A DNA stretch of 61,522 nt, the filler included. It is 7 parts of 7 records of this genome, joined end to end, with 100 filler letters (N's around TTAATTAATTAA, not from the genome) between each part and the next. Parts side by side here need not be neighbours in the genome. Positions count along the whole stretch, not along the records: positions 26,049 to 35,875 come from DRR378314_2337; 6 more parts are not named here. One strand, 5' to 3'. Below the pieces are notes generated by a model, which saw nothing but the letters and a program-made list of their open reading frames with translations, was not told the DNA's origin and searched no databases. Of the stretch, positions 5,856 to 55,571 are shown piece after piece (position 1 is the stretch's first letter; every line of letters starts with the position of its first letter). Both the position numbers and the translations under genes were made by a program.

Positions 5856-6839
<984 letters not shown>

Positions 6840-7581: not shown

Positions 7582-8679
7582 CTATTCTCGACGCTTCCAA
7601 GGTGGACGGCGTGCATCGCCAAGACGCGTTCGACGCTGCCCTCCCGGCCCCAGTAAATGAGCAATCCAGCGAGTCTGAGGATGGCTATCCAAGGCGATTT
7701 TTAATGTCATCGTCAATACGACCGACAACAACATCCCCGCAGCACCAAAGATCCACCCCCACACAACCAACGAAAGAAACGCCACAAATGTTGATAGCCC
7801 CAAGGCTTGCCCCATCACTCGCGGCTCAACCAAGTTACCCAAAACGAAATTAATCACCAAATAGGCAGATGCGAGTAACAGCGCCTGCAATACTCCGCCA
7901 TCTTGGGATACCAGCAATAGCAGTACGGGAGGAATCGCCGCCAAGGCCGAGCCGATATTAGGAATAAAGTTGAGGGCAAAAGCCAACACCCCCCACAGCA
8001 ACGGAAACTCCACTCCCACTATCAAGCAAGAGAGCCATACCAGTGCCCCGGTGGCCAAGCTAATAACGGTCTTCACTGCCAGGTAGCGCTTCAGCGTTAA
8101 ACTAAACTCGCTAAACCGCTTTAGGCTTGGCGCTGGGTTCTCAAGAGCGCGGGACACTTTATCTCGGAAGTTAAGCGTTTCAAACAGCATGAAAATAACT
8201 AACAGCCCGATAATACTGCCTTGCATAAAGAGATTGCCAAGTTCGCCTAGCAACGTTGTCACCCACGACCCATCGTCTTCCATAGCAAGCATATTGCTGA
8301 GCTGATCAGGATTAATGGCTAGCCCACGGTTAGAGAGCGCGTTCAACAAATCCCAATAATGCTCATACAAACGCGACTCGATATCCGGCAGCACCTGAAC
8401 AAAGGTGCTAAAGCTGTTGACCACCAGCAAGCCAATTAAGGAAATAAAACCCAGCAGCACCATCAATGTTAAAAAAGCAGAGGCTCCCCTGCTGAGGCCA
8501 CAGCGGTGCAGCCACTGCACAGGCGACGTACATACAACAGCAATAAAGACTGACAGTAACAGAGGAACCAGAAGATCCGCCCCAGCCTTCATACCCGCCA
8601 CAATAACAACGAGTGCGGCAAGCGCCAGGGTCGCATTTAAAGGGATACTACGATAATCCTCATCCGATAATTTCGACAT
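7582..8679 (-). CDS. AI-2E family transporter
   Basis: Multi-TM protein with LNFIPNIGS and GNLVEPRVMG motifs. Confidence 0.88.
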   Translation of the reverse strand: MSKLSDEDYRSIPLNATLALAALVVIVAGMKAGADLLVPLLLSVFIAVVCTSPVQWLHRCGLSRGASAFLTLMVLLGFISLIGLLVVNSFSTFVQVLPDIESRLYEHYWDLLNALSNRGLAINPDQLSNMLAMEDDGSWVTTLLGELGNLFMQGSIIGLLVIFMLFETLNFRDKVSRALENPAPSLKRFSEFSLTLKRYLAVKTVISLATGALVWLSCLIVGVEFPLLWGVLAFALNFIPNIGSALAAIPPVLLLLVSQDGGVLQALLLASAYLVINFVLGNLVEPRVMGQALGLSTFVAFLSLVVWGWIFGAAGMLLSVVLTMTLKIALDSHPQTRWIAHLLGPGGQRRTRLGDARRPPWKRRE

Positions 8680-8871
8680 TGCCCTTTCCTTAGCGTGTTA
8701 TCCACATATCATGGCCGCTCGCGCAATATTGCACAAACCATGACAACATTAAGCAATTGCTTTGCATCGACTCTTAGCCAGTGAACTTTATTGCGCTTTG
8801 CCCTTCCAAGCAGCGTCACAGTATAAATTAGTTAACATTAATCATTGGCTCGATCAGTAAGGAAGTGACCT

Positions 8872-9671
8872 ATGAATCCAGCAACACCACATCTAAAACG
8901 CTTGCGCTACGGCGTGCTTGGCAGCGCACTTCTCGCCCTCCTGGCAACGTCTACGGCTCACGCTGCGCCCCCCACCCCGCCCAGCTTACATGTTCAAGCC
9001 CAATCATGGGTGGAAGTAGAGCCCGACAAAGCCACACTGTCTGCACGGCTGTGGGAAAACACCCCAGCGGTTTCCACCCTGGAAGATACCGACAGTGGCG
9101 AGCTGAGCGACGCACGCGCGCGGCTTGAAAATCGTGCCAGTGAGCTAATTAAAGCCATGGAAGAGATCGGCATTGAGCAACGCGCCATCAATGCAGGGTC
9201 ACTCAATGTCTATCCTGAGCACGTCGCAGGGCCGCGCAACGATGATGGTGAACAAGAAACGTTAATGCGCACCCGCTTAGAGCGCCCCTTCAATATTGAG
9301 CTTACCGATATAGATCAATTGGGCGAGGTGTTTGACGCAATGATAAGTGCTGGCGTGAACACGCTGGACGGCGTTCAGTTTGATCTTCAAGACCGCGACG
9401 CCGCTACCGATGAAGCACTTACTAAAGCGCTAGAAAAAGCCCGCCATAAAGCGGACTTAATGGCCAGTACCCTAGGCGTAAGGCTTGGCCAAGTACAGCG
9501 CATTGAAGAAGCCCAAACGCCCATCTTCCAGCCCCGCATGATGGCCATGCGCGCTGAGAGCGATGCCATGGGCAGTGGTTCCGCTAGCGACTATCGCCCC
9601 GGCACCATTCGTATCGATGCCGAGGTCAACGTCGAGTGGGCAATTAGAGGGCAAGACGCTCAAGGCCGCCC
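8872..9671 (+). CDS. SIMPL (DUF541/YggE-like) periplasmic protein, 3' end truncated by linker
   Basis: Signal peptide, VEPDKATL, ARHKADLMASTLGVRLG. Confidence 0.85.
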
Positions 9672-9771
9672 NNNNNNNNNNNNNNNNNNNNNNNNNNNNN
9701 NNNNNNNNNNNNNNNTTAATTAATTAANNNNNNNNNNNNNNNNNNNNNNNNNNNNNNNNNNNNNNNNNNNN
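9672..9771. other. Artificial contig linker
   Basis: N44-TTAATTAATTAA-N44 (stops in all six frames); ORFs truncated on both sides. Confidence 0.99.
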
Positions 9772-10951
9772 CCTGTTCCACATGCAGGAAGAGGCCCCGG
9801 GGCAGATTTTCTGGCATCCCAATGGCTGGACCATTTACACACAGCTTCAGGATTACATGCGCCGCAAACAGCGGGCCGACGGCTATCGTGAGATCAACAC
9901 ACCGCAGGTTGTGGATCGCAAGCTGTGGGAAGCGTCAGGTCACTGGGACAAATACCAAGAGCACATGTTCATCGTCGAAGTCGAAGAAGAACATGCCAAG
10001 GAAAAGGCGATCAATGCACTCAAGCCGATGAACTGTCCCTGCCACGTGCAGGTGTTCAATCAAGGCTTGAAATCTTATCGTGACCTGCCCCTTCGCCTCG
10101 CCGAATTCGGCTCGTGCTCGCGGTATGAACCTTCAGGGGCGCTGCACGGAATCATGCGGGTACGCGGGTTCACGCAGGACGATGCCCATATCTTCTGCAC
10201 CGAGGATCAGATCGAAGCGGAATGCGCAAAGTTCATCAACTTCCTCGCCAGTGTCTACAAAGACCTCGGCTTTGAACAGTTCGAGATCAAGTTCGCCACC
10301 CGTCCGGAAAAACGCGTCGGCAGCGACGAAAGCTGGGATCATGTAGAAGGCGCGCTGGAAGCTGCGATCAAGGCGACCGGACGTGACTTCACGCTGGAAC
10401 CCGGCGATGGTGCGTTTTACGGACCAAAGTTGGATTTCTATTTGACCGACGCAATCGGTCGTGTCTGGCAGTGTGGCACATTCCAGGTCGACCCGAACCT
10501 GCCGGAACGGTTGGGGGCGACGTATATCTCGGCTGATGGCAGCAAGCAGCGCCCCTATATGTTGCACCGGGCCTGCCTTGGTTCGTTCGAACGGTTCGTC
10601 GGAATCATGATCGAAGAACACGCAGGTAAACTGCCCTTTTGGCTGGCCCCGCGTCAGGTCGTCGTCGCCTCGATCACGTCCGAGGCGGACGACTATGTGA
10701 TGGAAGTCGTTGAAACGCTCAAAGCCGCCGGTGTCCGGGCCGAAGCTGATATTCGCAACGAGAAAATCAACTACAAAGTCCGCGAGCATTCGGTTGGCAA
10801 AGTCCCGATCATACTGGCCGTCGGTCACCGCGAAGTTGATGAGCGCACCGTCAGTGTCCGTCGTCTTGGCGAAAAACAGACGCAGGTTCAGCCGCTTGAA
10901 TCTGTAACAAAAGAACTGGGTCAGGCCGCAACACCGCCGGATCTGCTGTAA
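9772..10951 (+). CDS. thrS: Threonyl-tRNA synthetase (5' truncated)
   Basis: [41 protein letters not shown]. Confidence 0.97.
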
Positions 10952-19278: not shown

Positions 19279-19378
19279 NNNNNNNNNNNNNNNNNNNNNN
19301 NNNNNNNNNNNNNNNNNNNNNNTTAATTAATTAANNNNNNNNNNNNNNNNNNNNNNNNNNNNNNNNNNNNNNNNNNNN
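19279..19378. other. Artificial contig linker
   Basis: N44-TTAATTAATTAA-N44. Confidence 0.99.
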
Positions 19379-25948: not shown

Positions 25949-26048
25949 NNNNNNNNNNNNNNNNNNNNNNNNNNNNNNNNNNNNNNNNNNNNTTAATTAA
26001 TTAANNNNNNNNNNNNNNNNNNNNNNNNNNNNNNNNNNNNNNNNNNNN
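25949..26048. other. Artificial contig linker
   Basis: N44-TTAATTAATTAA-N44. Confidence 0.99.
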
Positions 26049-26186
26049 TGCTGAGTGGGGAGTCCATATCATTCGTTAACTGTATCTAGCCAAGAAGGTA
26101 AAGGTAGTGTATTTACATTAAACCTACCTTATTGCACTTAAATTCAGACATTGAACTTTTGTAGAGTAATAAATAATAAATGACAC

Positions 26187-26303
26187 TACTACTTTAAGTA
26201 GCTTTTGTTCAACTTCTACAACATTTTTACCCATGGCAAATTTAGTGCGATTAGATACTCGATCAATATGAGTATCCACGGCTATGGTAGGGCAGTCAAA
26301 AGA
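26187..26303 (-). pseudogene. nth: Endonuclease III internal fragment (copy 3; putative att scar)
   Basis: Minus strand reads SFDCPTIAVDTHIDRVSNRTKFAMGKNVVEVEQKLLKVV, matching Nth AFGWPTIAVDTHIFRV...GKNVEQVEEKLLKVV; no start codon, truncated at both ends. Confidence 0.9.
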
Positions 26304-26361
26304 TAAGTAGGGTAGATTTGCAAAATCAAACGAGTTTTACACATCAACACTTTAGTTATTA

Positions 26362-27033
26362 TCACTTGAGCGTATTCTTCTTATCGATATTGATGGGGTT
26401 TTTATCGAGTAAAGTGAGTGTTTTTAAATCATGTAACCATAAATTTTTGATGGTAGGTGTTATTGATATAATCAATAAGAGCGCCATGATCATGTTAAAT
26501 CTCTTAATGTATTTACTACTGGTAAAATGCTTTTTTAAAAAAGCCCCAAAAAATACCCAAATACCAACACATATTGGTCCCGCTATCAAAAATGAACAGG
26601 TAAGTAGCAGTATTTGACTAATGTATGAATTGCCAGCTGTGGTATATGCTGACACTGCACTTAGGCATACTATCCATGCTTTTGCATTTACCCATTGAAA
26701 TAGTAAGCCTTTTGAGAAACTTAACGGTTTATCGTATTTGAAATTCTCGTTTCCCTCACCGCTGTTTGCTATGACAAAAGCTAAATAGAGCAAATAAGCG
26801 ATACCGATAACTTTTATGTAAATCGTCAGCTGAGGGAACAAAGAAAAAACTTGTCCAAACCCAAGACCAACGATAAACAGCATAATGGAAAAGCCGATGC
26901 TAATTCCCCATAGCAAAGGCAAACTCTTTCTGGCGCCAAAACTAACAGCAGAAGCCATTGCCATAATAGTATTTGGTCCGGGTGTAACAGATGCAGAAAT
27001 TGAAAAGATAATCACGGAGATTAAATACTCCAT
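26362..27033 (-). CDS. LysE-family exporter
   Basis: TPGPNT, YLLYLAF, FQWVNAKAW. Confidence 0.9.
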   Translation of the reverse strand: MEYLISVIIFSISASVTPGPNTIMAMASAVSFGARKSLPLLWGISIGFSIMLFIVGLGFGQVFSLFPQLTIYIKVIGIAYLLYLAFVIANSGEGNENFKYDKPLSFSKGLLFQWVNAKAWIVCLSAVSAYTTAGNSYISQILLLTCSFLIAGPICVGIWVFFGAFLKKHFTSSKYIKRFNMIMALLLIISITPTIKNLWLHDLKTLTLLDKNPINIDKKNTLK

Positions 27034-27090
27034 AAAAGCTCCTGTACGGCCTATATTATCAATTACAGTTATATTTGACGTTATAAAGGG

Positions 27091-27792
27091 TTAGGTTATT
27101 TTTCCATCACTAAAATAATAAGCGATGAGGCCTAAGGAGTTGATCAACCCATGCGCAATGATCAGTGGGAATAATTTTCGACCGTTATATAAATATACCA
27201 AAGCGAAAATGACAGCTACAACACCCGTGCTAATAATTCCTGGTATACCTTGAGATATATGAAGCATACCAAAAATAGTCGCGTGCAAGACAACGGCTGA
27301 AAAAATGCCTGCTTTCCTTTCTCCAAATAACGACATTAGGCTGTTCAATAAAAAACCACGCATTAATAGCTCTTCACCTATCGCTGCACCAACCCAAATT
27401 ACGACTAGTAAATATATAGCTAAATACAAAGGATTACCTAATAAGAATTCAAACCTATCGGTAGAACTTTTGGGTATGGTGACATCAAGGGCACTTGAAA
27501 TAATTGGAACTACTGCTGCCATAAATGCGAGCACTATCACCACTATTAAAATGGCAATGCCTATAGATTTGAACAAACTTCTCCCATCAGTAGGTAAGTT
27601 AAATCCGCGACTTTTCCATGTGATGTCTTGTTTCTTCATAAAGTATGTTGCGACAAATATTCCACACCACATTGCGATTGAACCCGCACCAATAACACTT
27701 AACCTGTCTGCGATGTCTTTAACGAGTAACATTACGCCCAGGACTACAACAACTTCAAAAATTGTTTGTTGTTTCGAAGTTAACTTTATCAT
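27091..27792 (-). CDS. CPBP/Abi (CAAX-type) intramembrane protease
   Basis: EELLMRGFL, FGMLH, AHGLIN motifs. Confidence 0.9.
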   Translation of the reverse strand: MIKLTSKQQTIFEVVVVLGVMLLVKDIADRLSVIGAGSIAMWCGIFVATYFMKKQDITWKSRGFNLPTDGRSLFKSIGIAILIVVIVLAFMAAVVPIISSALDVTIPKSSTDRFEFLLGNPLYLAIYLLVVIWVGAAIGEELLMRGFLLNSLMSLFGERKAGIFSAVVLHATIFGMLHISQGIPGIISTGVVAVIFALVYLYNGRKLFPLIIAHGLINSLGLIAYYFSDGKIT

Positions 27793-27930
27793 TATCAAAT
27801 TTTTCCTAATATTGCCGAGCTTTAACTTTTCGGTGGTATTGTATTGGCCTATTAAAATAATGGTTTAGTCCTTATTATTTAAATGATAATATTTAATTGA
27901 TTTATTAGTAAAAGAGATAATTGGTTTCTA

Positions 27931-28860
27931 ATGGCATTACATCCAGCAACGTTAACTTGTCTTCAAGTATTTAGCGCAATAGTTGAAGAGGGTGTTTTTA
28001 GTAGGGCATCTGAACGGTTGGGGTTGACGCAAAGCGCGGTAAGCCACCGAATAAAACAATTGGAAGAAATCACAGGTGTAACACTTATTAATAGAACAAC
28101 GAGATATATGAAGGTGACTGATGTTGGCCAACGTTTATATAATCAGTCTCGACTGAATCTTGTTGAACTAGAGCGTACATTATCCAGTTTGAAAAGCATG
28201 TCTGAAGCTCCTTTAAGTTTAACCACTATATCGTCATTAGCGACCAAGTGGTTGCTACCTAAACTCAGTGAGTACAACCAAGAACACCCTAATCAGCCAT
28301 TATCGGTGCTAACTGATGATAAAATTATCGACTTAAATTATGAAGGCATCGATGCCGCAATACGCCTAACCGATATTAACGATCCTGCTCTGCATATGAC
28401 CTTTATTTGTGATGAATGGGTTTTTCCCGTAGCAAGTGGTGCTATAGCTAAAGATGAAAATATTATTGCTCAACCAAACCTGTTATTAGATTTTCCTTGG
28501 CTTATAGATGTTATTGCTGAAAAAGGAAGTGATGAAAGCTCTTGGAAAGGTTGGCTCAGCAACCAAGCACTAGGTTTTCCTGACAATCATAAGAAGCAAA
28601 GCTTTAACCGAACTGACATTGCACTTCAGGCGGCGGCGGCGGGGCAAGGGGTTGCCATCGCTAGGGCAAGTTTAGTTGAAACAGATATGCTGGAAATGAA
28701 ACTTTTTAAACAAGTAGGACGTGCAGTAAAGATGAAATATTCATATTATTTTGTATGTCCTCATGAAAAGGCAGATCACCCTGTGATAGCCAACCTTAGA
28801 GATTGGATATCCAAAGAACTAAAGGCATCAGTGAGCAGAGTTAAGCAGCATATTTGTTAA
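27931..28860 (+). CDS. LysR-family regulator (GcvA-like)
   Basis: LTQSAVSHRIKQLE, WLLPKL, AAAAGQGVAI; divergent from CPBP-lysE. Confidence 0.9.
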   Translation: MALHPATLTCLQVFSAIVEEGVFSRASERLGLTQSAVSHRIKQLEEITGVTLINRTTRYMKVTDVGQRLYNQSRLNLVELERTLSSLKSMSEAPLSLTTISSLATKWLLPKLSEYNQEHPNQPLSVLTDDKIIDLNYEGIDAAIRLTDINDPALHMTFICDEWVFPVASGAIAKDENIIAQPNLLLDFPWLIDVIAEKGSDESSWKGWLSNQALGFPDNHKKQSFNRTDIALQAAAAGQGVAIARASLVETDMLEMKLFKQVGRAVKMKYSYYFVCPHEKADHPVIANLRDWISKELKASVSRVKQHIC

Positions 28861-29015
28861 ATACAATACACGTGAAATAAAGTGTCTAATTAACTAGGGA
28901 TAGATAATTGGCATGTGTGTAAATGCGTTAGCATTTAATAGTCCAATAAGTCGGTTGCATTAAGCATAATTCCAGAATACTCATCTTTCAGCTTGTGTAA
29001 TTAATGTGAACCTAG

Positions 29016-29263
29016 TTATTCACTCTGGTCTTTAAACTCACACAAATCTTCAATAATACAAGCGCCGCACTTGGGTTTACGGGCTACGCAAGTATATCGA
29101 CCCTGAAGAATAAGCCAGTGATGCACATCGACTTTAAATTCTTTCGGTACAACTTTTAGACGTTTCTGTTCAACCTGTACTACGTTTTACCCATCGCAAA
29201 TTTAGTGCGATTGGATACGCGGCCGATGTGGGTGTCTACAGCGATAGTAGGCCAGCCAAAAGA
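29016..29263 (-). pseudogene. nth: Endonuclease III 3' segment (copy 2; putative att scar) with one frameshift
   Basis: FGWPTIAVDTHIGRVSNRTKFAMGK/(1-nt deletion)/[55 protein letters not shown]; includes the CX6CX2CX5C 4Fe-4S motif. Confidence 0.93.
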
Positions 29264-29375
29264 TAATTAAAGTAGGCATTGTGACTGACTCAATTTTTAG
29301 ATCTGCTTTTAGCCAAAAGCTGAGCTTAACTCTTGAGTTACTAAAATCAGTTTAGCAGAGCCTAAAATCGACAAA
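29251..29375. repeat. Palindromic-unit array abutting the nth junction
   Basis: Half unit AAAGTAGGCATT ending at 29280; units TAGATCTGCTTTTAGCCAAAAGCTGAGCTT (29298) and ~29343; homologous to 34589-34710. Confidence 0.65.
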
Positions 29376-29517
29376 ATGCCTTTATGAAATAAACCGCAAC
29401 CTAATCTAAGACCTGGCCTCTGCTAGTTTATGAGGCTAAACCAATCTGTTAGCCGACTATCAGTTTCAAATACGCGAGAAAGTTATATTTAACGAAAAAT
29501 AGCAAAACGCGTTTTAT

Positions 29518-31587
29518 TTAATTACTAGAGAATACATCGAAATTTCGATTCTTCGTATAAGCATATACAAGAGACATTTTTGAAATATCAAATCGGGATG
29601 GTAATTGGTCTGCCAAAATATCAATTTTCTTCGTTTTTTCTGAATACCTTTTTATTGCGTTTTTTTGTCCTAATGCTAACCAGTACCATTGTTCACCATA
29701 CTTCTTAATATTTAAAGAACGATGAGTAATTAAGGAAATATCATCAGTCGGAGTATTTGTATCTATCGTTCCATTTGGTCCTGATTTCACAATATTGTTT
29801 TGGTCTACCCAAATAGTGTTTCCAGAATTACTTGCATGCTGGACATATTTCCAATTGGGCGATTCAATTGATGAAATTTCACTCATTAAGTCATAAATAT
29901 GAACTTGCCATTTACCTTGTTTCTTCATGCTAAAACTAATTTGTTGATCTGTTTTGAACGATACAGCGCGCAGTTCCTGCTCTGGTAAAGGTAATTTGGT
30001 GACTTTAAAATCAGATAAATTAATATAAAATATACTATTGATACCCAGTGCTATTAGCGCTTGGCCATTTGGAGAAAACTTCAAATCGAAGTAGTGATTT
30101 TGGTTATCAAAGTTAGTTAGCTTTAAGCGCTTTTCTGTCACAACATCATAAAGCCATATTTGTTCACTGCCTGTAGCTTCACTTATATAAGCTACTGCTT
30201 TACCGTTTGGAGAAAATGCTGGTAGCCTGTCACTAACACTAGCATTTGCAATAGTTTTGCTGTTCCCATTAATTAGATCTACAAGTTTAATATCTTTGTT
30301 ATGCCTACCTGCAACATATAAATAGTCCGTGCCGTTACTATGTCTGTAGGGTCTTACGATTTGTTCACTGGCAGAAAAAATAATTTCTTTTTCCTTACCT
30401 GATAAATCATAGCTAGCCAATTGATATGATGGGAAACCATCCATAAGGACAATTCTGTCTCCTTGGTGAGACCATATTCCGCAGCAAATATAAGCATTTT
30501 GCTTGAACAGTAAATTAAGTTTTTCACTATCTAAATCAAGAGAGTAAAACCCTACCCACTGCTTTTCATCAGGCGATGAAATGAGAAGCTTGTTTTTTGT
30601 TGGGTGGAGATCAAATTGACTATTTCCTGCCAGATGAACACTCGGCTGATTTAATCGTGTTTTTATTTTGGTTTTAAGATTTAACTCAAATAATTCATAG
30701 GGTGTACCAGCCCCGTTATTTTCTGAAAATACAACTGTATTCTTATCGTGGGTATACGACATCCCCCCATAACTTCCTTTATTACAAGTATAAATTAATT
30801 CTGGCTCTTCTAATTGCAGACCATTAACGGCTCTAGTGTAGTATTGGCAAGTATTGACACTAGTTACCAAGTAAACTATTTCTTTACCGTCTGGGCTCCA
30901 ACTCGCAGGACCAACATCTGCATCATTACTATGTTGCACATATACTTTCTCATGACTTTTTAAACTTTTGATGACAAGGTTAATTTGGTTGTCTGATGTA
31001 ATCGACATATAGCTAATTCTAGTGCCATCAGGAGAAATCGAAGGTTGAACTTCATTACCGGCATCAGTGGTAAGAACAATTGAACCTGAAATTTTAATGT
31101 CTTTATTTATTGTTAGCTCAGAACTAGGTTTTTTTTGAACAAATAGCAACCAAGAACAAAATATAGCAATTAACAGAAAAGTTGCTAGTAACAAAAGTTT
31201 GTGATTACTTTTTCTAATTATTTCGTTGCTTCGATCAGCATGTATTTCGATCAAAGGTTGTTTTTCTTTATAATCAGCTAAAGGTTGAACATTAGCGATA
31301 AACTTGTAACCTTTTTTTGGAAAAGTAGCGATAAAGTTAGGCTTTCTTGCATCATCTAGAAATACTTTCCTGAGCTTTGTGATAATCCTAGTCACAGCAT
31401 TATCGGAAACAATGCGCCCTTGCCATACATATTCAATTAGTCGGTCTTTACTAATGATTTCATTCGGATGCTGACAAAAGTAAACTAAAAGCTCTACCAT
31501 CATAGGTTCTAACTGGCTCGAACCATCCTCAGATATCAAAGTCTGCTTTTCGTCACAAAAAATATAATGATTAATTTGCCAACGCAT
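29518..31587 (-). CDS. CadC/ToxR-like transmembrane one-component regulator (wHTH + TM + TolB/PD40 propellers)
   Basis: LEPMMVELL...VWQGRIVSDNAV...IATFPKKGYKF, a single TM, SPDG/WSPDG/FSPNG repeats; start set at MRWQ. Confidence 0.88.
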   Translation of the reverse strand: MRWQINHYIFCDEKQTLISEDGSSQLEPMMVELLVYFCQHPNEIISKDRLIEYVWQGRIVSDNAVTRIITKLRKVFLDDARKPNFIATFPKKGYKFIANVQPLADYKEKQPLIEIHADRSNEIIRKSNHKLLLLATFLLIAIFCSWLLFVQKKPSSELTINKDIKISGSIVLTTDAGNEVQPSISPDGTRISYMSITSDNQINLVIKSLKSHEKVYVQHSNDADVGPASWSPDGKEIVYLVTSVNTCQYYTRAVNGLQLEEPELIYTCNKGSYGGMSYTHDKNTVVFSENNGAGTPYELFELNLKTKIKTRLNQPSVHLAGNSQFDLHPTKNKLLISSPDEKQWVGFYSLDLDSEKLNLLFKQNAYICCGIWSHQGDRIVLMDGFPSYQLASYDLSGKEKEIIFSASEQIVRPYRHSNGTDYLYVAGRHNKDIKLVDLINGNSKTIANASVSDRLPAFSPNGKAVAYISEATGSEQIWLYDVVTEKRLKLTNFDNQNHYFDLKFSPNGQALIALGINSIFYINLSDFKVTKLPLPEQELRAVSFKTDQQISFSMKKQGKWQVHIYDLMSEISSIESPNWKYVQHASNSGNTIWVDQNNIVKSGPNGTIDTNTPTDDISLITHRSLNIKKYGEQWYWLALGQKNAIKRYSEKTKKIDILADQLPSRFDISKMSLVYAYTKNRNFDVFSSN

Positions 31588-31643
31588 ATAAAATATTTTA
31601 ACAAAGGTAAGTATCTGAAAATTAACATACACCCTCCATTTAG

Positions 31644-31692
31644 TCACATAAAATCATAACAAATCACAAGATTATCACGACTTATTTTCACC
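31644..31692. promoter_or_regulatory. Phased TCA(C/T) direct repeats, probable wHTH binding site
   Basis: TCACA/TCATA/TCACA/TCACG at 31644, 31654, 31664, 31675 in the divergent promoter. Confidence 0.55.
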
Positions 31693-31747
31693 ATTCCCTT
31701 AACTTCTTTTCGCAATCTAAATTTATTGAACTAAAAAGCAGGTACCT

Positions 31748-33262
31748 ATGAATAAAGCGTCTTATCTATTGGCCATTGCAGCTTCTATTTCTCTAACGTC
31801 ATGTTCTGTGAGCGGTACAAAAAGTGAAGCGACATTAAGGGCTGCGAGTGTTTGTTTTTCAACTAACTCAAGTGCAGATATTAAAGCCCAATTTGAAAAC
31901 GGTATCGTGTCGAAAACGATATTCACTAACAAAGAGGAATCTTTATCTAGCATTGAAGAACGGTTAGAAGATCTTAATATTCCTTCCCTTTCATTAGCTG
32001 TAATGAACGGTGGTATTATCGAGTGGTCTGCTATTTATAATTCACCATCAAACAAAGCGCTAATAGATTGTAATACACGTTATCAAGTGGCTTCATTATC
32101 AAAGCCTGTCACTGTCATGGCTGCGATCCGCATGCAATCAAATGGGTATATCGATCTAAATGAAAATATCGAAAACTATTTAAAGAGCTATAAACTGCCA
32201 AAAGGCAAGCAAACGAAGAGTGCGCCTATTACGATTAAAAATACGCTAGATCACTCTTCGGGGATTAATTCTGGAGGTTTTTTAGGGTATCAACAAGGTT
32301 CGCCTATACCATCTGATATTGAAATATTAAAAGGTAATAAGCATTCAAATTCAGCACCTTTATCTGTTGTTAGTAAACCAGGAGTGCAACTTGCTTATTC
32401 AGGAACAGCATATACGTTAGCTCAAGTTGCATTAAAGGATATATTCAAAAAAGATTTTTCCAGCATTATGGATAAATGGATCTTGTCGCCGTTGGGGATG
32501 GAAAACTCCAGTTATCGTTCTCCTGATATATCTTCTAAAAATCAACCAAACTCAAAAATACAGGCAATTTCAATTGCTAAAGGGCATGACTCTGATGGTA
32601 AAGAAATAGAAGGTGGTTGGAGAGTTCATCCTGAACTAGCCGCCGCTGGAATGTGGAGTAACGCCAATGATATGGCTACTTTTATGCTTGAAATATACAA
32701 AGGCTACCAAGGCAAGAGTACTTTGTTTTCTCAATCAGAGATAAAGCAAATGCTTGAAAATGAAAAAGGTGGCCACGTTTATGGGTTTATTTTAAACCAT
32801 GAAGGTGATGACATTACTCTCACCCATTTTGGCGGTAATGTGGGTTACCGAGCTGGCATGACTATTAGCTTAAAAACGGGAGATGGCTTAGTTTATTTAC
32901 TTAATTCTGACAATGGTGCAGCGTTAGGAAACCAATTAATGATGACCGCATCAAAACTGTACGATTGGTCCAGCTTTAAACAAATCATCAAAACCAAACG
33001 TGAAGCCAAGATGGAGATATTGAAGTCTCTAGTAGGTAATTACTTGTGGAACGAGCAACTAGCGTTATCCATTAGTTATGAAGATGAACATCAACAGATT
33101 TCACTGCATTTCCCCAATGGTGATCAATACAAACTCACTCCTATAAAAGGAGTTGGTAAATCCTTTATACATCAGGACACTGCCACACTTGTCTCTTTTA
33201 ACTCATGGGATAAAGAGACTGAATTTACTGTATATGGACAACGAGCTGTAAGAATGAAATAA
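31748..33262 (+). CDS. Serine hydrolase (beta-lactamase class C-like) lipoprotein
   Basis: Lipobox LTSC, ASLSK (SxxK), LAYSG, HFGGNVGY, extra C-terminal domain. Confidence 0.85.
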   Translation: MNKASYLLAIAASISLTSCSVSGTKSEATLRAASVCFSTNSSADIKAQFENGIVSKTIFTNKEESLSSIEERLEDLNIPSLSLAVMNGGIIEWSAIYNSPSNKALIDCNTRYQVASLSKPVTVMAAIRMQSNGYIDLNENIENYLKSYKLPKGKQTKSAPITIKNTLDHSSGINSGGFLGYQQGSPIPSDIEILKGNKHSNSAPLSVVSKPGVQLAYSGTAYTLAQVALKDIFKKDFSSIMDKWILSPLGMENSSYRSPDISSKNQPNSKIQAISIAKGHDSDGKEIEGGWRVHPELAAAGMWSNANDMATFMLEIYKGYQGKSTLFSQSEIKQMLENEKGGHVYGFILNHEGDDITLTHFGGNVGYRAGMTISLKTGDGLVYLLNSDNGAALGNQLMMTASKLYDWSSFKQIIKTKREAKMEILKSLVGNYLWNEQLALSISYEDEHQQISLHFPNGDQYKLTPIKGVGKSFIHQDTATLVSFNSWDKETEFTVYGQRAVRMK

Positions 33263-33330
33263 CGCCAACACGCCTCGTTAACAATGAGCGTGAATGACAC
33301 CCGAAAGCAATTTACTAAAAGGAAAAAAAG

Positions 33331-34083
33331 ATGAAAACACTAACGGCGATAATACTAACATTACTGATACTCACGGCAAATGCGACAGCAGAGCCTAGAA
33401 AAAAAATATTAATAGTTGCCTCTAATATGATTGATATGGGCGATCCTGAAAAACACGACGCAAGAAATAATTTATGGGAATTCGCTCCGCCGTATCATAT
33501 TTTTGTTAGTCATGGATTTGATGTCGACTTTGTATCACCTCAAGGTGGAAAAGTGGATTTTATGATGGATCCATTAGGTATTAGTAGTTACACCATCAAG
33601 TATGAAGGTTTTCTAGAAAAAACGAACAGTTCATTATCGCCTGCTCAAACTGATCCAAATGACTACTGGGGAGTATTCATCGGTGGTGGTTACGGGGTTA
33701 TGTTTGACGTTGCAGATAATAAGGAAATACATTCGATTATAAGCCGGGTATATGAATCAGGTGGTATTGTCGGTGTCGGCGGTCATGGCTCAGCAGGCAT
33801 CGTAAACGTAAAATTACCGAACGGTGAATTTTTGGTGAAAGGAAAAAAAGTGGCCGGTTTTCCTAACTCTACCGAAAAATCTAAATCATGGGCAAAGCAA
33901 GGGACACTTTTGCCTTTTCTTATTGAAAGTCAGTTAAATAAAAATGGCGCTATCGCTCAGAATAAGAAAACACTAAAAGATAAACATGCAGTAGTAGTAG
34001 ACCAACGAATCGTCTCAACAATGTTCTTGCCTCCAGCAGCACTTGTCGCAAAAGAAATGATTTTATTGAAAGAAGCTAAATAA
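33331..34083 (+). CDS. Secreted DJ-1/PfpI (Hsp31-like) protein lacking the nucleophile Cys
   Basis: Signal peptide, WEFAPPY, VSPQGG, GGGYG, GGHG in place of xCHG. Confidence 0.8.
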   Translation: MKTLTAIILTLLILTANATAEPRKKILIVASNMIDMGDPEKHDARNNLWEFAPPYHIFVSHGFDVDFVSPQGGKVDFMMDPLGISSYTIKYEGFLEKTNSSLSPAQTDPNDYWGVFIGGGYGVMFDVADNKEIHSIISRVYESGGIVGVGGHGSAGIVNVKLPNGEFLVKGKKVAGFPNSTEKSKSWAKQGTLLPFLIESQLNKNGAIAQNKKTLKDKHAVVVDQRIVSTMFLPPAALVAKEMILLKEAK

Positions 34084-34367
34084 AGCGCCGATGACGCAAG
34101 TAGCTTATGCTACTTAGCAATGCGCTCGATTTTTATTTGAATTAAGTACAACAAGGAAACTGACTGCATGGTTAACCCACTAAAATATTAAACTTTTATC
34201 GTATCGTAATTACCAGCTTGATGTTGAACAGCGACGCACACGGGCAGGTTGGTGGTAGTGCGGGCTACGATAGCTCTTTACGAGCAATTGAACCTAAAAG
34301 TATACCTTTAATGCCGGACTTGCTGGTTCCTCTTCGCCTCAAATAGGTAGATTAATAGTGGCGAAAA

Positions 34368-34549
34368 GTCACAGGCGCGTAATTTACAGTCTAACGCCAA
34401 ATTAAACATCGTTAATTCTCGCAGTTTATTTGCCAGCTCTAACCGTATTCTAATTAACCATATTTCTTTGAGTTTTAGAGAAAATTTTAACCAGCTAGTT
34501 TGCCTTTATTCCAGCAAGATTTTCGTGAAGTTGATTTGCTCTCGACCGT
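34368..34549 (-). pseudogene. Small tyrosine recombinase/integrase N-terminal remnant
   Basis: GGAG RBS, ACG (probable mutated ATG), then WNKGKLAG*/(frameshift)/LKLKEIWLIRIRLELANKLRELTMFNLALDCKLRACD; matches the WNKGKLVGQK...LFNLAIDSKLRGCD phage-integrase family N-terminus, including the catalytic Arg. Confidence 0.8.
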
Positions 34550-34588
34550 GATAATGCTCCTTTCATGAAGGGACTATAAGTATGACTG

Positions 34589-34802
34589 GGAGCACTGAAT
34601 TTATTAATAGCAGGCATTGTGCGTATGTAAGTGAGAAATGCTTCACTTAGCCAATTTCGGACATTGGTTTTTGAGTTACTAATGGCAGCTCAGAGCCTGA
34701 AGCGGACATCGCTCTTTTGTGATGCCATAATCATGCTAAGGATAATATTAAACCAAGATTTCAACTTATTTGTGACGCGGGTTCAAGCTCATTGCAGCCG
34801 TA
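34589..34802. repeat. Palindromic-unit array upstream of the integrase remnant
   Basis: Units at 34589 (ends ATAGCAGGCATT), 34636 (AAATGCTTCACTTAGCCAATTTCGGACATT), 34681 (AATGGCAGCTCAGAGCCTGAAGCGGACATC), weak unit at 34773. Confidence 0.65.
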
Positions 34803-34882
34803 ACAATTTGCGTTTTTAAAACAAAAAACGACTATTTTAGTAATTTCACTTTCCTTGATTCTAATTTTTAATTACTAGGGGC

Positions 34883-34977
34883 TATGTAAGTAATACCTGT
34901 CTTTATGTCAGTGATACTTGACACCTATTAACTTTAATGTAATGCTTACCTTACATTATGTCATGAGCTGGTGACAT
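34883..34977. promoter_or_regulatory. Four TGT(C/A)A-N8-T(G/T)ACA operators in two tandem pairs
   Basis: Units at 34883, 34904, 34936, 34957 (21-bp spacing within pairs; the first has a degenerate right arm), upstream of the membrane protein/XRE operon. Confidence 0.7.
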
Positions 34978-35024
34978 GATTAGATAGTTGATTAACGATA
35001 GCAAGGTAAAGACCGGAGGTTAAA

Positions 35025-35432
35025 ATGAGTAATGAATTAGATAAAAAGGAAAAGAAGTTTCTAGTCAAATTTATGTTGCATATAGCGATGTTTTTAGCGG
35101 TTTTAGCGATATCAGTAGTAATGAATGAGACCAATAATTTGTCTATATACAGCACTGGATTCCTCGCAATGTCTCCTGTAATTCCTGTGATATTTTTATT
35201 GCGGCTGGTGGTAAATCATTATAGGTCATTAGATGAATACATCCAGAGAGTAATGGGTGAAAGTTTGCTTTGGGCTGTAGGTGTTGTTGGCTGTGTGGCA
35301 ATGGCTTATGGGTTGCTGGCAGAAATGGTTGAGGTGCCAAGCTTTAGCCCCGCCTTTATGTTACCAGCAATAGCGGTCATCTTTGGTGTAGCGCAGTTTA
35401 TTAAACTATCGGGCAATACCCATGAAGAATAG
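35025..35432 (+). CDS. Four-TM membrane protein
   Basis: GGAGG RBS, hydrophobic helices with LDEY motif; overlaps the downstream XRE gene. Confidence 0.8.
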   Translation: MSNELDKKEKKFLVKFMLHIAMFLAVLAISVVMNETNNLSIYSTGFLAMSPVIPVIFLLRLVVNHYRSLDEYIQRVMGESLLWAVGVVGCVAMAYGLLAEMVEVPSFSPAFMLPAIAVIFGVAQFIKLSGNTHEE

Positions 35433-35616
35433 GTTACGGGTACTTCGTGCAGAAAAAGGCTGGTCTCAAGCAGATCTTGCTGAAAAGTTAGGAGTGTCAC
35501 GTCAAGCCGTGAACGCTATAGAAACAGGGAAACATGATCCTTCTTTAACTCTTGCTTTTGCTCTTGCGGATGCTTTTGGACAACGCATTGAAGATTTGTT
35601 TTTGCACAAAGGGTAA
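35422..35616 (+). CDS. XRE-family HTH regulator
   Basis: MKNRLRVLRAEKGWSQADLA...VSRQAVNAIETGKHDPSL. Confidence 0.92.
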   Translation: MKNRLRVLRAEKGWSQADLAEKLGVSRQAVNAIETGKHDPSLTLAFALADAFGQRIEDLFLHKG

Positions 35617-35627
35617 ATCTTAAACAA

Positions 35628-35749
35628 TATACCTTCTTTTGGCGAACTGTCGTCGTTATTCTGTGCGAATAATGCATGTCTGCTTTGTCGGAGAACTTGT
35701 CGTTAGATAAGCCAAGGCTAATGTCAGCTGTCGTATCAAAGTAGACAAA
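35628..35749. repeat. Three palindromic units immediately downstream of the nth stop
   Basis: 35628, 35675 (CATGTCTGCTTTGTCGGAGAACTTGTCGTT), 35720 (AATGTCAGCTGTCGTATCAAAGTAGACAAA); periods 47 and 45. Confidence 0.65.
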
Positions 35750-35751
35750 AG

Positions 35752-35875
35752 TTATTCTGTCTTATCTTTAAACTCGCACAAGTCTTCGATAATGCAGCTG
35801 CCACATTTAGGTTTGCGGGCGGTACACACATAGCGGCCGTGTAGAATCAACCAGTGGTGCACATCAACTTTAAAC
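35752..35875 (-). CDS. nth: Endonuclease III 3' end (copy 1; intact reading frame, runs off the contig)
   Basis: [40 protein letters not shown]; cannot tell whether this is the functional gene or another fragment. Confidence 0.85.
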
Positions 35876-35975
35876 NNNNNNNNNNNNNNNNNNNNNNNNN
35901 NNNNNNNNNNNNNNNNNNNTTAATTAATTAANNNNNNNNNNNNNNNNNNNNNNNNNNNNNNNNNNNNNNNNNNNN
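35876..35975. other. Artificial contig linker
   Basis: N44-TTAATTAATTAA-N44. Confidence 0.99.
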
Positions 35976-42681: not shown

Positions 42682-42781
42682 NNNNNNNNNNNNNNNNNNN
42701 NNNNNNNNNNNNNNNNNNNNNNNNNTTAATTAATTAANNNNNNNNNNNNNNNNNNNNNNNNNNNNNNNNNNNNNNNNNNNN
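42682..42781. other. Artificial contig linker
   Basis: N44-TTAATTAATTAA-N44. Confidence 0.99.
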
Positions 42782-55471: not shown

Positions 55472-55571
55472 NNNNNNNNNNNNNNNNNNNNNNNNNNNNN
55501 NNNNNNNNNNNNNNNTTAATTAATTAANNNNNNNNNNNNNNNNNNNNNNNNNNNNNNNNNNNNNNNNNNNN
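55472..55571. other. Artificial contig linker
   Basis: N44-TTAATTAATTAA-N44. Confidence 0.99.

Follow-up and report, generated by a model that had tools for sequence, protein, structure and literature searches.

Repeat arrays in a composite nth locus as candidate recombination sites accompanying a small tyrosine recombinase

The stretch of DNA analysed here (the window; 61,522 bases, 61.5 kb) consists of seven unrelated contigs with N linkers between them, and the whole finding is confined to a single 9.8-kb contig (26049-35875, GC content 35-38%), the limits of which are set by linkers of the form N..TTAATTAATTAA..N at 25949-26048 and 35876-35975. The contig is Colwellia-like. At its right end, a first copy of nth (copy 1, 35752..35875, minus strand, by sequence reading) is visible over its final 40 codons and stop codon; since the contig is bounded by the linkers, this copy runs off its end. 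Two further nth fragments lie on the same strand: copy 2 (29016..29270; six-frame translation, alignment A4) is a 3′ fragment (~83 codons and the stop) that is frameshifted by one base past ..FAMGK, and copy 3 (26200..26315; repeat D2, alignment A4) has the same nth start point, ends after ..LLKVV and carries a homologous junction string at 26302-26316. The resemblance between the junctions of copies 2 and 3 proposed in the first-pass annotation is real, with a 91-nt repeat (26225-26315 and 29185-29275, 80% identity) spanning both junction strings. The equal offset claimed for a TCAGCT motif behind two nth stops holds to within one base (22 and 23 nt), but the 6-mer was picked post hoc, and the decayed units suspected after the stop of copy 2 were not confirmed, the best post-stop local alignment being matched or beaten by 151 of 500 shuffles.

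The nth copies and three repeat arrays delimit several groups of genes, annotated here with Pfam. Between nth copies 2 and 3 lies an older module (26316..29015) encoding a LysE translocator (26362-27033, minus strand), an Rce1/CPBP-like protease (27091-27798, minus) and a LysR regulator (27931-28860, plus); the model search gave no array at either of its ends. Cargo between arrays 1 and 2 (29378..34190) comprises an OmpR-type winged-helix and PD40 beta-propeller regulator (29518-31647, minus), a PF00144 serine-hydrolase-family protein (31748-33262, plus) and a DJ-1/PfpI-like protein (33331-34083, plus). A further module (34713..35675, plus; Pfam and NCBIfam), between inverted elements E and X, encodes a 135-aa membrane protein (35025-35432) that matches no family, together with a 64-aa XRE-type helix-turn-helix protein (35422-35616), and its E..X order is that of the related loci L002 (8285..9851) and L003 (7392..9893).

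All three arrays, at the places where they had first been noticed, were recovered with nhmmer models seeded from Colwellia, Cognaticolwellia and Paraglaciecola loci, the window sequence being excluded from the seeds. Array 1 (29290..29377, minus; element X, units A 29343-29375 and B 29298-29327) matches model X at 29292-29355(-) with E=2.6e-10 and is 84.6% identical to L002 12688-12726. Array 2 (34628..34712, minus; element X, units A 34681-34710 and B 34637-34665; alignment A3), immediately upstream of a recombinase remnant, matches model X at 34629-34709(-) with E=1.3e-12 and shares 84% identity with L002 9830-10186. Array 3 (35676..35750, plus; units 35675-35704 and 35720-35749; alignment A2) is an element E, that is, an element X in inverted orientation; it ends 2 nt short of the stop codon of nth copy 1, is matched by model E, with six loci as its only seed, at 35682-35744(-) (E=4.7e-17) and by model X at 35676-35730(+) (E=0.018), and has blastn counterparts (79-87%) at L001/L003 10656-10726, L002 8292-8343, L003 7398-7449, L007 4938-4989 and L006 7290-7337. 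Beyond the three arrays, models X and E gave nothing with E<2.7 across the window. A third unit, C (34590..34619, minus; alignment A3), lies within the conserved leader of the recombinase module, where a leader model built from four loci matches 34575-34634 (E=3.3e-13), and the TATAAAT/TATTAAT-like stretch under it may act as a promoter. Units claimed at 28941, 34773 and 35628 were detected by no model, and the three arrays were absent from the output of Tandem Repeats Finder (3 rows) and from a repeat-finding run (11 direct families, 24 inverted pairs).

The period of 45-47 bp initially assigned to the arrays is close to the measured arm spacing of 45-48 bp, with conserved-arm starts at 29375/29328/29280 in array 1 (47 and 48 bp), 34710/34665/34619 in array 2 (45 and 46 bp) and 35676/35721 in array 3 (45 bp); units in L002 are spaced by 44 and 47 bp. 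Their description as imperfect palindromes could not be sustained. When 12+12 arms are compared, 9 of 11 units score at background (5-7/12; mean 6.25 over 1398 sampled positions, 0.2% of which score at least 10), and unit B of array 1 (29299) is the sole one to reach 10/12. Likewise, the 30-nt consensus drawn from these units is weak alone, the claimed units matching 10-18 of the 22 bases it specifies, against 14-16 reached in coding DNA from this contig; six positions score at least 16, four of them within arrays. Conservation concerns a single arm, present as a direct repeat, and the centre of the middle unit. The unit thought to be split by the nth junction is a true hybrid (29251..29283, minus; alignments A3 and A4) that fuses the unit C left arm to nth sequence: on the reverse strand it keeps register with the third of the units upstream of the recombinase gene and matches it at 12 of the 13 leading positions (A3), and beyond the junction the recombinase-side sequence is replaced by nth. 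Native Colwelliaceae Nth reads ..NTAFGWPT.. and the window fragments read LSFGWPT and LSFDCPT, so that nth homology begins at the Phe codon, where TTATC meets TTTTGG (A4).

The recombinase remnant (34191..34573, minus; stop-to-stop pieces, alignment A1) derives from a family of 207-aa tyrosine recombinases. Its pieces lie in three frames and include WNKGK and the LRACD arginine motif; the catalytic C-terminal half is missing, and the gene is a truncated pseudogene. A 65-aa piece matched 65 of 81 candidate proteins at E<=1e-3, mostly of 207 aa with PF00589 and some named Colwellia, and alignment A1 shows little or no variation at the catalytic residues R58, K86, H155, R158, H181 and Y190. The intact protein contains PF00589 alone (residues 41-192 of 207), with no arm-binding or core-binding domain, and its PDB matches are catalytic domains only. 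The enzyme failed the membership tests for integron integrases (24 and 17 bits, with cut-offs at 265 and 435), XerC/XerD (59 and 42 bits, with cut-offs at 335 and 330) and FimB/FimE-type enzymes (27 and 22 bits, with cut-offs at 221 and 222).

The intact gene was followed in 79 related loci (10 of the Colwellia group and 69 others), where it forms a module of ~780 bp whose ends are fixed. In L001, L002, L003 and L005, for example, shared sequence is confined to 9884-10662 (92-96% identity), and the four diverge to its left and right. Once the recombinase cluster itself (87 ORFs from 79 loci) and ORFs antisense to the recombinase gene had been set aside, neighbour clustering revealed no conserved neighbour, the largest clusters being of 10 ORFs, in 8 loci (IS transposase) and 7 loci (SDR-like). 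All 79 loci were fetched for encoding the recombinase, so that co-occurrence in them is not comparable with a recombinase-free genome background, and the sole internal control is a distance test (p=0.02, n=7): in the Colwellia group, 7 of 7 strong non-adjacent X/E matches point the same way with respect to the recombinase and are no more than 5 kb from it, and none falls in the 51,765 bp at greater distance (p under uniformity).

In these relatives, elements of the X and E types lie directly up- and downstream of the intact recombinase gene, and the inverted sites bracketing it have the arm AATGTCnGC in common. At Pseudomonas-type loci, inverted sites occupy about -90..-61 and +32..+57 around the gene, the inner arm and centre being invariant and the outer arm variable. 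An E. coli plasmid encodes a recombinase homologue of 60% identity flanked by the same arm; site sequence varies by recombinase lineage (Colwellia, Pseudomonas, E. coli plasmid) and the position at gene ends is kept. A site model scanned over the non-Colwellia loci gave 106 matches of at least 14 bits in 1,183,597 bp, as against 0.4 per first-order Markov shuffle. Of these matches, 83 adjoin a recombinase gene, with at least one adjacent site in 49 of 69 loci and at least two in 29; the 20 loci without a gene-adjacent match include some cut by contig ends and some with diverged sites. The 83 adjacent matches are circular, since they overlap with the 45 training sites, and independent support from the model comes only from the 23 matches elsewhere and the shuffle control. 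The outer arm G-C-GCT, which had no part in choosing the training sites, carries 1.2-1.5 bits per position. On these comparisons, the arrays are members of a conserved site family that accompanies the small tyrosine recombinase in many Proteobacteria.

The role of the arrays as module boundaries, also proposed at the outset, gains support from homology between genomes, which breaks at the site centre. The left flank and recombinase of L021 and L022 are 99.9% alike and divergence sets in right after GCCGGCCA, whereas L019 equals L022 plus 1.43 kb, encoding a 295-aa LysR-type ORF, between two directly repeated sites, past which the flank resumes at 97.5%; comparison documents one cassette gain. 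Direct second sites lie 1.39 kb (L020), 1.67 kb (L016) and 3.67 kb (L034) behind the recombinase, and within L010 the same left and right elements occur both with the recombinase module between them and without it. These with/without pairs come from other loci, none involving the window's own modules. Cassettes in Burkholderiales and Pseudomonas loci lie behind the recombinase with sites in direct repeat; in the Colwellia group, individual genes have E and X at their borders, site orientation alternates (E .. X-rec-E .. X), and the E-type centre CGTATC differs from that of type X. Given these different orientation rules and centres, a single mechanism is not established. By the alternating pattern, the window should contain an E element past the recombinase, which was presumably lost with the 3′ half of the gene in a deletion.

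We consider it reasonably probable that the arrays are recombination sites belonging to a system for exchanging cassettes or modules, decayed in the window and lodged in nth; their status as candidate sites tied to the WNKGK recombinase rests on comparative evidence. The dedicated 207-aa, catalytic-domain-only enzyme would act on arrays made up of a crossover unit and one or two accessory binding units, a role we infer for units A and C, each unit presenting a single conserved arm AATGTCnGC. In the proposed crossover unit, the arm is followed by a short invariant centre, TGGCT (Colwellia-type) or TGGCCGG (Pseudomonas/Burkholderiales-type), and then by a second arm varying module by module. Cleavage and strand exchange within the centre would join the sequences on both sides, so that genes between two sites, including the ~780-bp recombinase module itself, would behave as exchangeable modules. 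The window may then contain a composite of modules that carried its own nth 3′ end and was inserted in nth, an event that would have occurred on two occasions and displaced two 3′ fragments of nth; the nth junction would be a hybrid site in which GCTTTTGGCTGG, the half contributed by nth (codons Ala-Phe-Gly-Trp), imitates the site centre. At this junction, the conserved arm is ~10 nt further from TGGC than in the B unit, and the junction could therefore reflect one illegitimate event followed by homologous recombination via the ~250-bp nth segment. With the recombinase since decayed, the arrays of the window would be relics.

The same inverted sites might instead be the ends of a selfish minimal element, a ~780-bp "transposon" consisting of the recombinase alone, with the other arrays as solo ends or MITE-like relics at positions of its former presence, and with neighbouring genes not moved as cassettes. 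This reading, which we regard as unlikely, accounts for the inverted repeats bracketing a gene without conserved neighbour, the two full recombinase copies in L053, L061 and L063 and the partial second copy in L027, the filled and empty versions of one composite in L010 and the many loci with sites only at the gene. It does not sit well with the LysR cassette of L019, which lies between two sites without a recombinase, with the 23 sites away from any recombinase, whose second arms are module-specific, or with the single genes bounded by E and X. Furthermore, in the standard tyrosine-recombinase mechanism two inverted sites yield inversion, not excision.

Distinctly less plausible is a conventional integrative island lodged in the 3′ portion of nth, with the arrays as arm-type accessory sites of attL and attR and the tandem nth fragments produced by serial integration. 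Three nth 3′ copies with one start point, the distal two displaced and decayed, and two junctions each abutted by an array would fit such an island, but the recombinase lacks the arm-binding and core-binding domains, the older module has no detectable array, and all 10 Colwellia-group loci carry elements with no nth within 10 kb. Among all 79 loci, nth lies near the recombinase in one (L050), where it is intact and 660 bp off. That the arrays are extragenic repeats of the REP/BIME kind, serving structure or transcript stability, unconnected with recombination and merely co-located with a mobile recombinase gene, is very improbable: the elements all occupy intergenic DNA, in many cases past the end of a gene, and form short arrays of partial dyad symmetry, but the single-strand folds of five X/E elements do not surpass those of shuffles (z = -0.9 to -2.2), Rfam has no match to them, their sequence follows the recombinase lineage at a constant position, and homology breaks at their centres.

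For the exchange system favoured here, the literature searched yielded no description of such sites with such a recombinase, and its separateness from integrons and Xer/pdif modules, suggested from the first, is upheld by the enzyme scores and the folding results. As in integrons, a tyrosine recombinase lies beside a primary site with single-gene cassettes behind it, each with its own site (L019, L016, L020, L034), and the cargo is diverse. However, the enzyme is without the extra segment or N-terminal domain of IntI, the sites are conserved in sequence whereas attC sites are defined by structure, and sites lie on both sides of the recombinase gene itself. TnpI of Tn4430 and Tn5401, which resolves cointegrates within a Tn3-family transposon, is likewise encoded by a gene preceded by a core site and directly repeated accessory binding motifs, but in the present case there is no transposase, sites also occur downstream and at a distance, and modules differ between sites. 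The FimB/FimE invertases resemble the recombinase in size (~200 aa, little beyond the catalytic domain) and in their short inverted repeats; they merely flip a promoter, whereas the variable flanks here indicate that the unit moves. REP/BIME units also form extragenic arrays, but REP repeats are associated with RAYT and not with a tyrosine recombinase. Also comparable are the pdif modules of Acinetobacter plasmids (XerC/XerD), the properties of which are taken in part from PMC9771954: they too have short two-arm sites of alternating orientation bounding modules of one to few genes, which are common to several replicons with breakpoints at the sites. The system described here differs from them in having its own small recombinase instead of host XerC/XerD, multi-unit arrays of ~85 bp instead of a single 28-bp site, and a distribution over chromosomes as well as plasmids.

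The repeat arrays are confined to a single contig (26049-35875), whose G+C content of 35-38% differs from that of the neighbouring contigs (50-67%). The seven contigs are joined by six linkers (N..TTAATTAATTAA..N; 9672-9771, 19279-19378, 25949-26048, 35876-35975, 42682-42781, and 55472-55571), and because their G+C content ranges from 35% to 67%, contigs lying side by side need not be genome neighbours or even derive from one organism. The array-bearing contig contains three 3′ parts of nth, all on the minus strand: copy 3, a fragment (26200-26315); copy 2, which is frameshifted (29016-29270); and copy 1, consisting of the last 40 codons and running into the contig end (35752-35875). Between copies 3 and 2 are genes for a LysE translocator, a Rce1/CPBP-like protease, and a LysR regulator, whereas copy 2 is followed by genes for an OmpR-type plus PD40 regulator, a PF00144 serine-hydrolase-family protein, and a DJ-1-like protein. 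The PF00144 match is a 504-aa protein (31748-33262), and the “beta-lactamase” name of this serine hydrolase family does not imply beta-lactam hydrolysis. Further along lie the shattered remnant of a tyrosine recombinase gene (34191-34573, minus strand) and, between the remnant and nth copy 1, genes for a 135-aa membrane protein and a 64-aa XRE regulator. Upstream of the latter pair there is a 27-nt direct repeat (34884-34910 and 34937-34963; 74% identity at a distance of 53 bp), possibly serving the XRE regulator as an operator.

The longest intact translated piece of the recombinase remnant served to find its family: 65 of 81 candidates had E ≤ 1e-3, most of them 207 aa long and some named Colwellia. 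At least 600 stretches encoding the family were confirmed in species-representative genomes, from which 79 loci were fetched. The first-pass annotation had described arrays of imperfect palindromes of about 30 bp with a regular period, an observation that is partly confirmed. Profile models built exclusively from other genomes recovered the three arrays (29290-29377 and 34628-34712 on the minus strand, 35676-35750 on the plus strand) at 29292-29355 (E = 2.6e-10), 34629-34709 (E = 1.3e-12), and 35682-35744 (E = 4.7e-17), with no further match anywhere in the 61.5-kb window. Likewise, in a blastn comparison of the contig with the 79 loci, the matches beyond the recombinase itself were exactly the three array regions. 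The periodicity also holds: successive arms (AATGTCnGC) are 45-48 bp apart in the window and, in a related locus (L002), 44-47 bp apart. Other parts of the description fared less well. The units proposed at 28941, 34773, and 35628 were matched by no model, and the degraded units thought to follow the stop codon of nth copy 2 found no support, 151 of 500 shuffles being at least as similar as the two post-stop regions. Only the unit at 29299 is strongly palindromic (10/12), the others scoring 5-7/12 against a mean of 6.25. As for the 30-nt consensus, the proposed units do match it at 10-18 of 22 specified bases, but coding DNA reaches 14-16, and it was rejected as a scanner because its scores overlap the coding background. 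Neither Tandem Repeats Finder nor a direct and inverted repeat search on the contig reported any of the arrays, the count of the 7-mer arm in the contig (9 observed versus 4.2 expected) was too weak for use, and Rfam yielded no match to a known RNA family at E ≤ 1.

The recombinase is a member of the PF00589 tyrosine recombinase superfamily, with the domain spanning residues 41-192 of 207 (69-76 bits versus a cut-off of 27.1) and the catalytic Arg, Lys, His-x-x-Arg, His, and Tyr columns conserved in an alignment of 15 family members; the window copy retains only the first arginine motif. It reached no family cut-off in NCBIfam, scoring 71 bits against 220 for XerA, 58.8 against 335 for XerC, and 42.2 against 330 for XerD, as well as 27 and 22 bits against 221 and 222 for the invertase models. 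Sequence matches in the PDB cover only residues 36-195 and involve the catalytic domains of XerH, XerD, and XerA (E ~ 1e-7). An AlphaFold2 model from the 15-sequence alignment was too poor for use (mean pLDDT 55.6, pTM 0.40), and in the ESM Atlas the recombinase found only its own kind, generic PF00589 clusters. The family is a large one, with 660 cluster representatives at E ≤ 1e-30 in a set of 1.84 billion. Copies with ≥60% identity are present in approximately 215 plasmid records, including those of a Pseudomonas aeruginosa megaplasmid and an Escherichia coli IncFIB plasmid. Strains in which the gene is intact include Colwellia hornerae ACAM 607, Paraglaciecola sp. MB-3u-78, and Pseudomonas nitroreducens TX1. 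A conserved partner gene was considered and rejected, with no neighbour being conserved in the 79 loci: apart from the recombinase cluster itself (87 ORFs in 79 loci) and ORFs antisense to the gene, the largest clusters contain 10 ORFs each, from 8 and 7 loci. In 8 of the 79 loci, an IS1182-family transposase gene adjoins the recombinase. Three loci carry two recombinase copies within a few kilobases (L053, 6257-6862 and 10001-10606; L061, 3234-3839 and 10001-10606; L063, 10001-10612 and 12657-13262), and in L027 a second copy (8326-8766) is partial and inverted.

Comparison of Colwellia-type loci revealed two kinds of array element. Element X, of about 85 bp, comprises, in the orientation of the recombinase, unit A, a conserved spacer, and unit B, the latter consisting of the arm AATGTCAGC, three variable bases, and the centre TGGCTA, beyond which the sequence of each copy differs. 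Element E, of about 52 bp, corresponds to the outer portion of X, inverted and with another centre, as judged from an alignment of E copies and our own comparison. A third unit, C, lies within the conserved leader upstream of the recombinase, as seen in an alignment of upstream units. The DNA common to L001, L002, L003, and L005 is limited to 9884-10662, starting in unit B and ending 40 bp past the stop codon; the recombinase gene thus constitutes a module of about 780 bp with fixed ends. Relative to the recombinase, the orientation of strong X and E copies is constant, and the copies alternate as E .. X-rec-E .. X, an arrangement seen in L002, L003, L005, L006, L007, and the window, with one or two genes between successive copies in the Colwellia group. 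The window has the order nth copy 1, E, XRE module, X, recombinase remnant with cargo, X, and nth copy 2, the same as in the Colwellia-group loci; one E is missing, plausibly lost with the 3′ half of the recombinase gene.

Comparable sites accompany the family in distant bacteria. Recombinases of Pseudomonas, Stutzerimonas, Achromobacter, Caballeronia, and others have an identity of 62-68%, and those in Pseudomonas-type loci lie between inverted sites at about −90 to −61 and +32 to +57. These sites have an invariant inner arm and an invariant centre, TGGCCGG, but differ in the outer arm (GTCCGCT, GACCGCT, or GTCTGCT) and in three bases next to it; the outer arm, though not used in choosing the 45 training sites, is informative. 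A weight matrix, of the kind the first-pass annotation had proposed to set against shuffled controls, gave 106 matches in 1,183,597 bp compared with 0.4 per Markov shuffle; 83 of these are at recombinase genes and partly overlap the training set, and the 23 elsewhere are independent. At least one adjacent match was found in 49 of 69 loci and at least two in 29. Furthermore, the arm AATGTCyGC is present on both sides of a 60%-identical homolog (6004-6606) on the E. coli IncFIB plasmid pCFSAN061766 (L080), which lies about 1.3 kb from a region with IS26, aph(6)-Id, aph(3″)-Ib, and sul2. On the P. aeruginosa plasmid pPUV-1 (L081, 4410-6000), the left site has lost its outer arm and part of its centre to other sequence directly downstream of an IS1182-family gene, and it looks as if the IS had inserted there. 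In L049 (10500-10570), and likewise in other Pseudomonas-type loci, the recombinase stop codon is followed directly by a strong hairpin (−17.3 kcal/mol, z = −4.8). The 3′ arm of this hairpin coincides in part with the inner arm of the right-hand site, and the hairpin might act as a terminator, as a second binding site, or as both.

The first-pass reading of the units as recombinase sites that delimit exchangeable gene modules is supported by comparisons between loci. The left flank and the recombinase are common to L021 and L022 (99.9%), which part directly after GCCGGCCA. L019 equals L022 plus 1.43 kb with an ORF for a 295-aa LysR-type protein (8187-9074), inserted between the right site of the recombinase and a second site in direct repeat; beyond this second site, the flank continues at 97.5%. 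Comparable second direct sites follow the recombinase at distances of 1.39, 1.67, and 3.67 kb in L020, L016, and L034, respectively. In a Paraglaciecola contig (L010), the same left and right elements occur twice in opposite orientation (60-1010 versus 7630-7850), with the recombinase module inside one pair and just about 45 bp inside the other. Finally, the seven strong non-adjacent sites of the Colwellia group are all found no more than 5 kb from the recombinase; the 51,765 bp of more distant sequence has none (p = 0.02). A selfish element consisting of the recombinase alone, of which the other arrays would be relic ends, appears unlikely: the inverted sites around the recombinase gene and the nearly empty element pair of L010 could be accommodated by it, less readily the LysR-type insertion and the second direct sites. 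Under exchange of modules, the likeliest reading, site-specific exchange in the centre would be expected to leave the pattern seen, in which the arm is conserved, the short centre is invariant, and the far arm is specific to the module. Tyrosine recombinases need identity of the overlap region, for which the invariant centre would be the expected candidate. Units A and C, in which the arm recurs as a direct repeat about every 46 bp, may be accessory or regulatory binding sites; such accessory repeats occur in attI and the TnpI resolution site.

The junctions with nth bear on how the window contig arose. The claim that one unit is split by nth is borne out: the reverse strand of 29251-29283 aligns in register with the third unit preceding intact recombinase genes, 12 of the first 13 bases being identical by our own count, and then runs on as nth in place of the recombinase leader. 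The model of unit C gave no match at the nth junction, and the evidence for a hybrid unit is this alignment. Native Colwelliaceae Nth reads ..NTAFGWPTIAVDTH.., compared with LSFGWPT and LSFDCPT in the fragments; because the sequences differ before Phe, the junction is placed at the Phe codon (TTATC|TTTTGG). The likeness of the copy-3 junction to that of copy 2 also held, the homologous string being present. Copy 2 carries a one-base frameshift directly after ..FAMGK (29183-29190). In copy 3, the nth homology ends after ..LLKVV (26200), followed by AT-rich DNA beside the C-terminus of a putative histidine kinase gene (26049-26140, plus strand), a label assigned by eye from the C-terminal peptide in a six-frame translation. 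nth as a general target was rejected: it is nearby in only 1 of the 79 loci, where it is intact. An ordinary nth island with arm sites, which would account for the repeated nth ends of the contig, is improbable, and the 207-aa, PF00589-only recombinase is unlike the heterobivalent integrase with an arm-binding domain found in lambda-type integrative islands. The nth codons for Ala-Phe-Gly-Trp (GCTTTTGGCTGG) resemble the site centre and the preceding bases (compare unit B of L005), and a single joint of a unit with nth, whether recombinase-mediated or illegitimate, could plausibly have produced a circle-borne hybrid site carrying the nth 3′ end. Such a circle might re-enter nth by site-specific or homologous recombination, each entry displacing the resident 3′ end. 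Exchange of this kind would explain the triplicated nth 3′ ends and the unrelated accessory genes between them.

Collectively, these results make it possible, though somewhat short of probable, that the arrays belong to a widespread, undescribed gene-module exchange system of Proteobacteria. A catalytic-domain-only tyrosine recombinase of 207 aa, with an N-terminal tail of 35 aa and itself packaged as a cassette, would insert, swap, and stack modules of one to a few genes at multi-unit sites on chromosomes and plasmids, and could capture pieces of housekeeping genes that mimic the site centre, as with nth; the system would be the third beside integrons and pdif modules. If so, the latter two are not the sole site-specific gene-shuffling platforms of Gram-negative bacteria, a defined site model would permit annotation of module boundaries in genomic islands, and the compact pair of recombinase and site could be tested as a tool. 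No account of such a system was found in the full-text literature searched, which comprised main texts with few subscription journals among them. In a classification of tyrosine recombinases, simple recombinases comprise a core-binding and a catalytic domain, and the accessible part of that source mentions no catalytic-domain-only group like this one (PMC8138268).

Among known repeats, REP-like sequences are a very remote explanation of the arrays: short intergenic arrays with partial dyad symmetry would suit them, but folds and palindrome scores indicate no stable hairpin-forming palindromic unit of the REP/BIME kind, repeats of which a genome has tens to hundreds in its extragenic DNA. In single-strand DNA folds of the three window arrays and two locus elements, z ranged from −0.9 to −2.2, with 4-36 of 200 shuffles folding at least as well, and single-strand hairpins are unlikely. 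MITE and IS elements are characterised by terminal inverted repeats, duplication of the target site, and a partner transposase of the DDE, HUH, or serine type; in the present loci, inverted sites flank the recombinase gene, and element X has no terminal inverted repeats of its own. The distinction from integrons and Xer/pdif modules drawn in the first-pass annotation stands, the integrase and site hairpins of the former and the recombinase of the latter having been tested for and found absent. In integrons, cassettes end in attC sites, which in single-stranded form fold into stable hairpins with imperfect pairing; here, the sites lack a stable single-strand hairpin and there is no IntI-type integrase at the family cut-off (TIGR02249, 24.4 bits versus 265; NF011946, 17.4 versus 435). 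A dif-like site is 28 bp long (11-6-11), a layout to which, to our knowledge, the present sites bear no obvious likeness, and the XerC/XerD-type recombinase with core-binding and catalytic domains is likewise missing. On the other hand, cassettes lie beside a primary site next to the recombinase gene (L019 versus L022, and the second direct sites of L016, L020, and L034) as in integrons, which shows a resemblance in working mode rather than membership, and neighbouring sites alternate in orientation around modules as in pdif modules. Judged from these arrangements, the function would resemble that of integrons in keeping cassettes behind the enzyme and that of pdif modules in its alternating sites.
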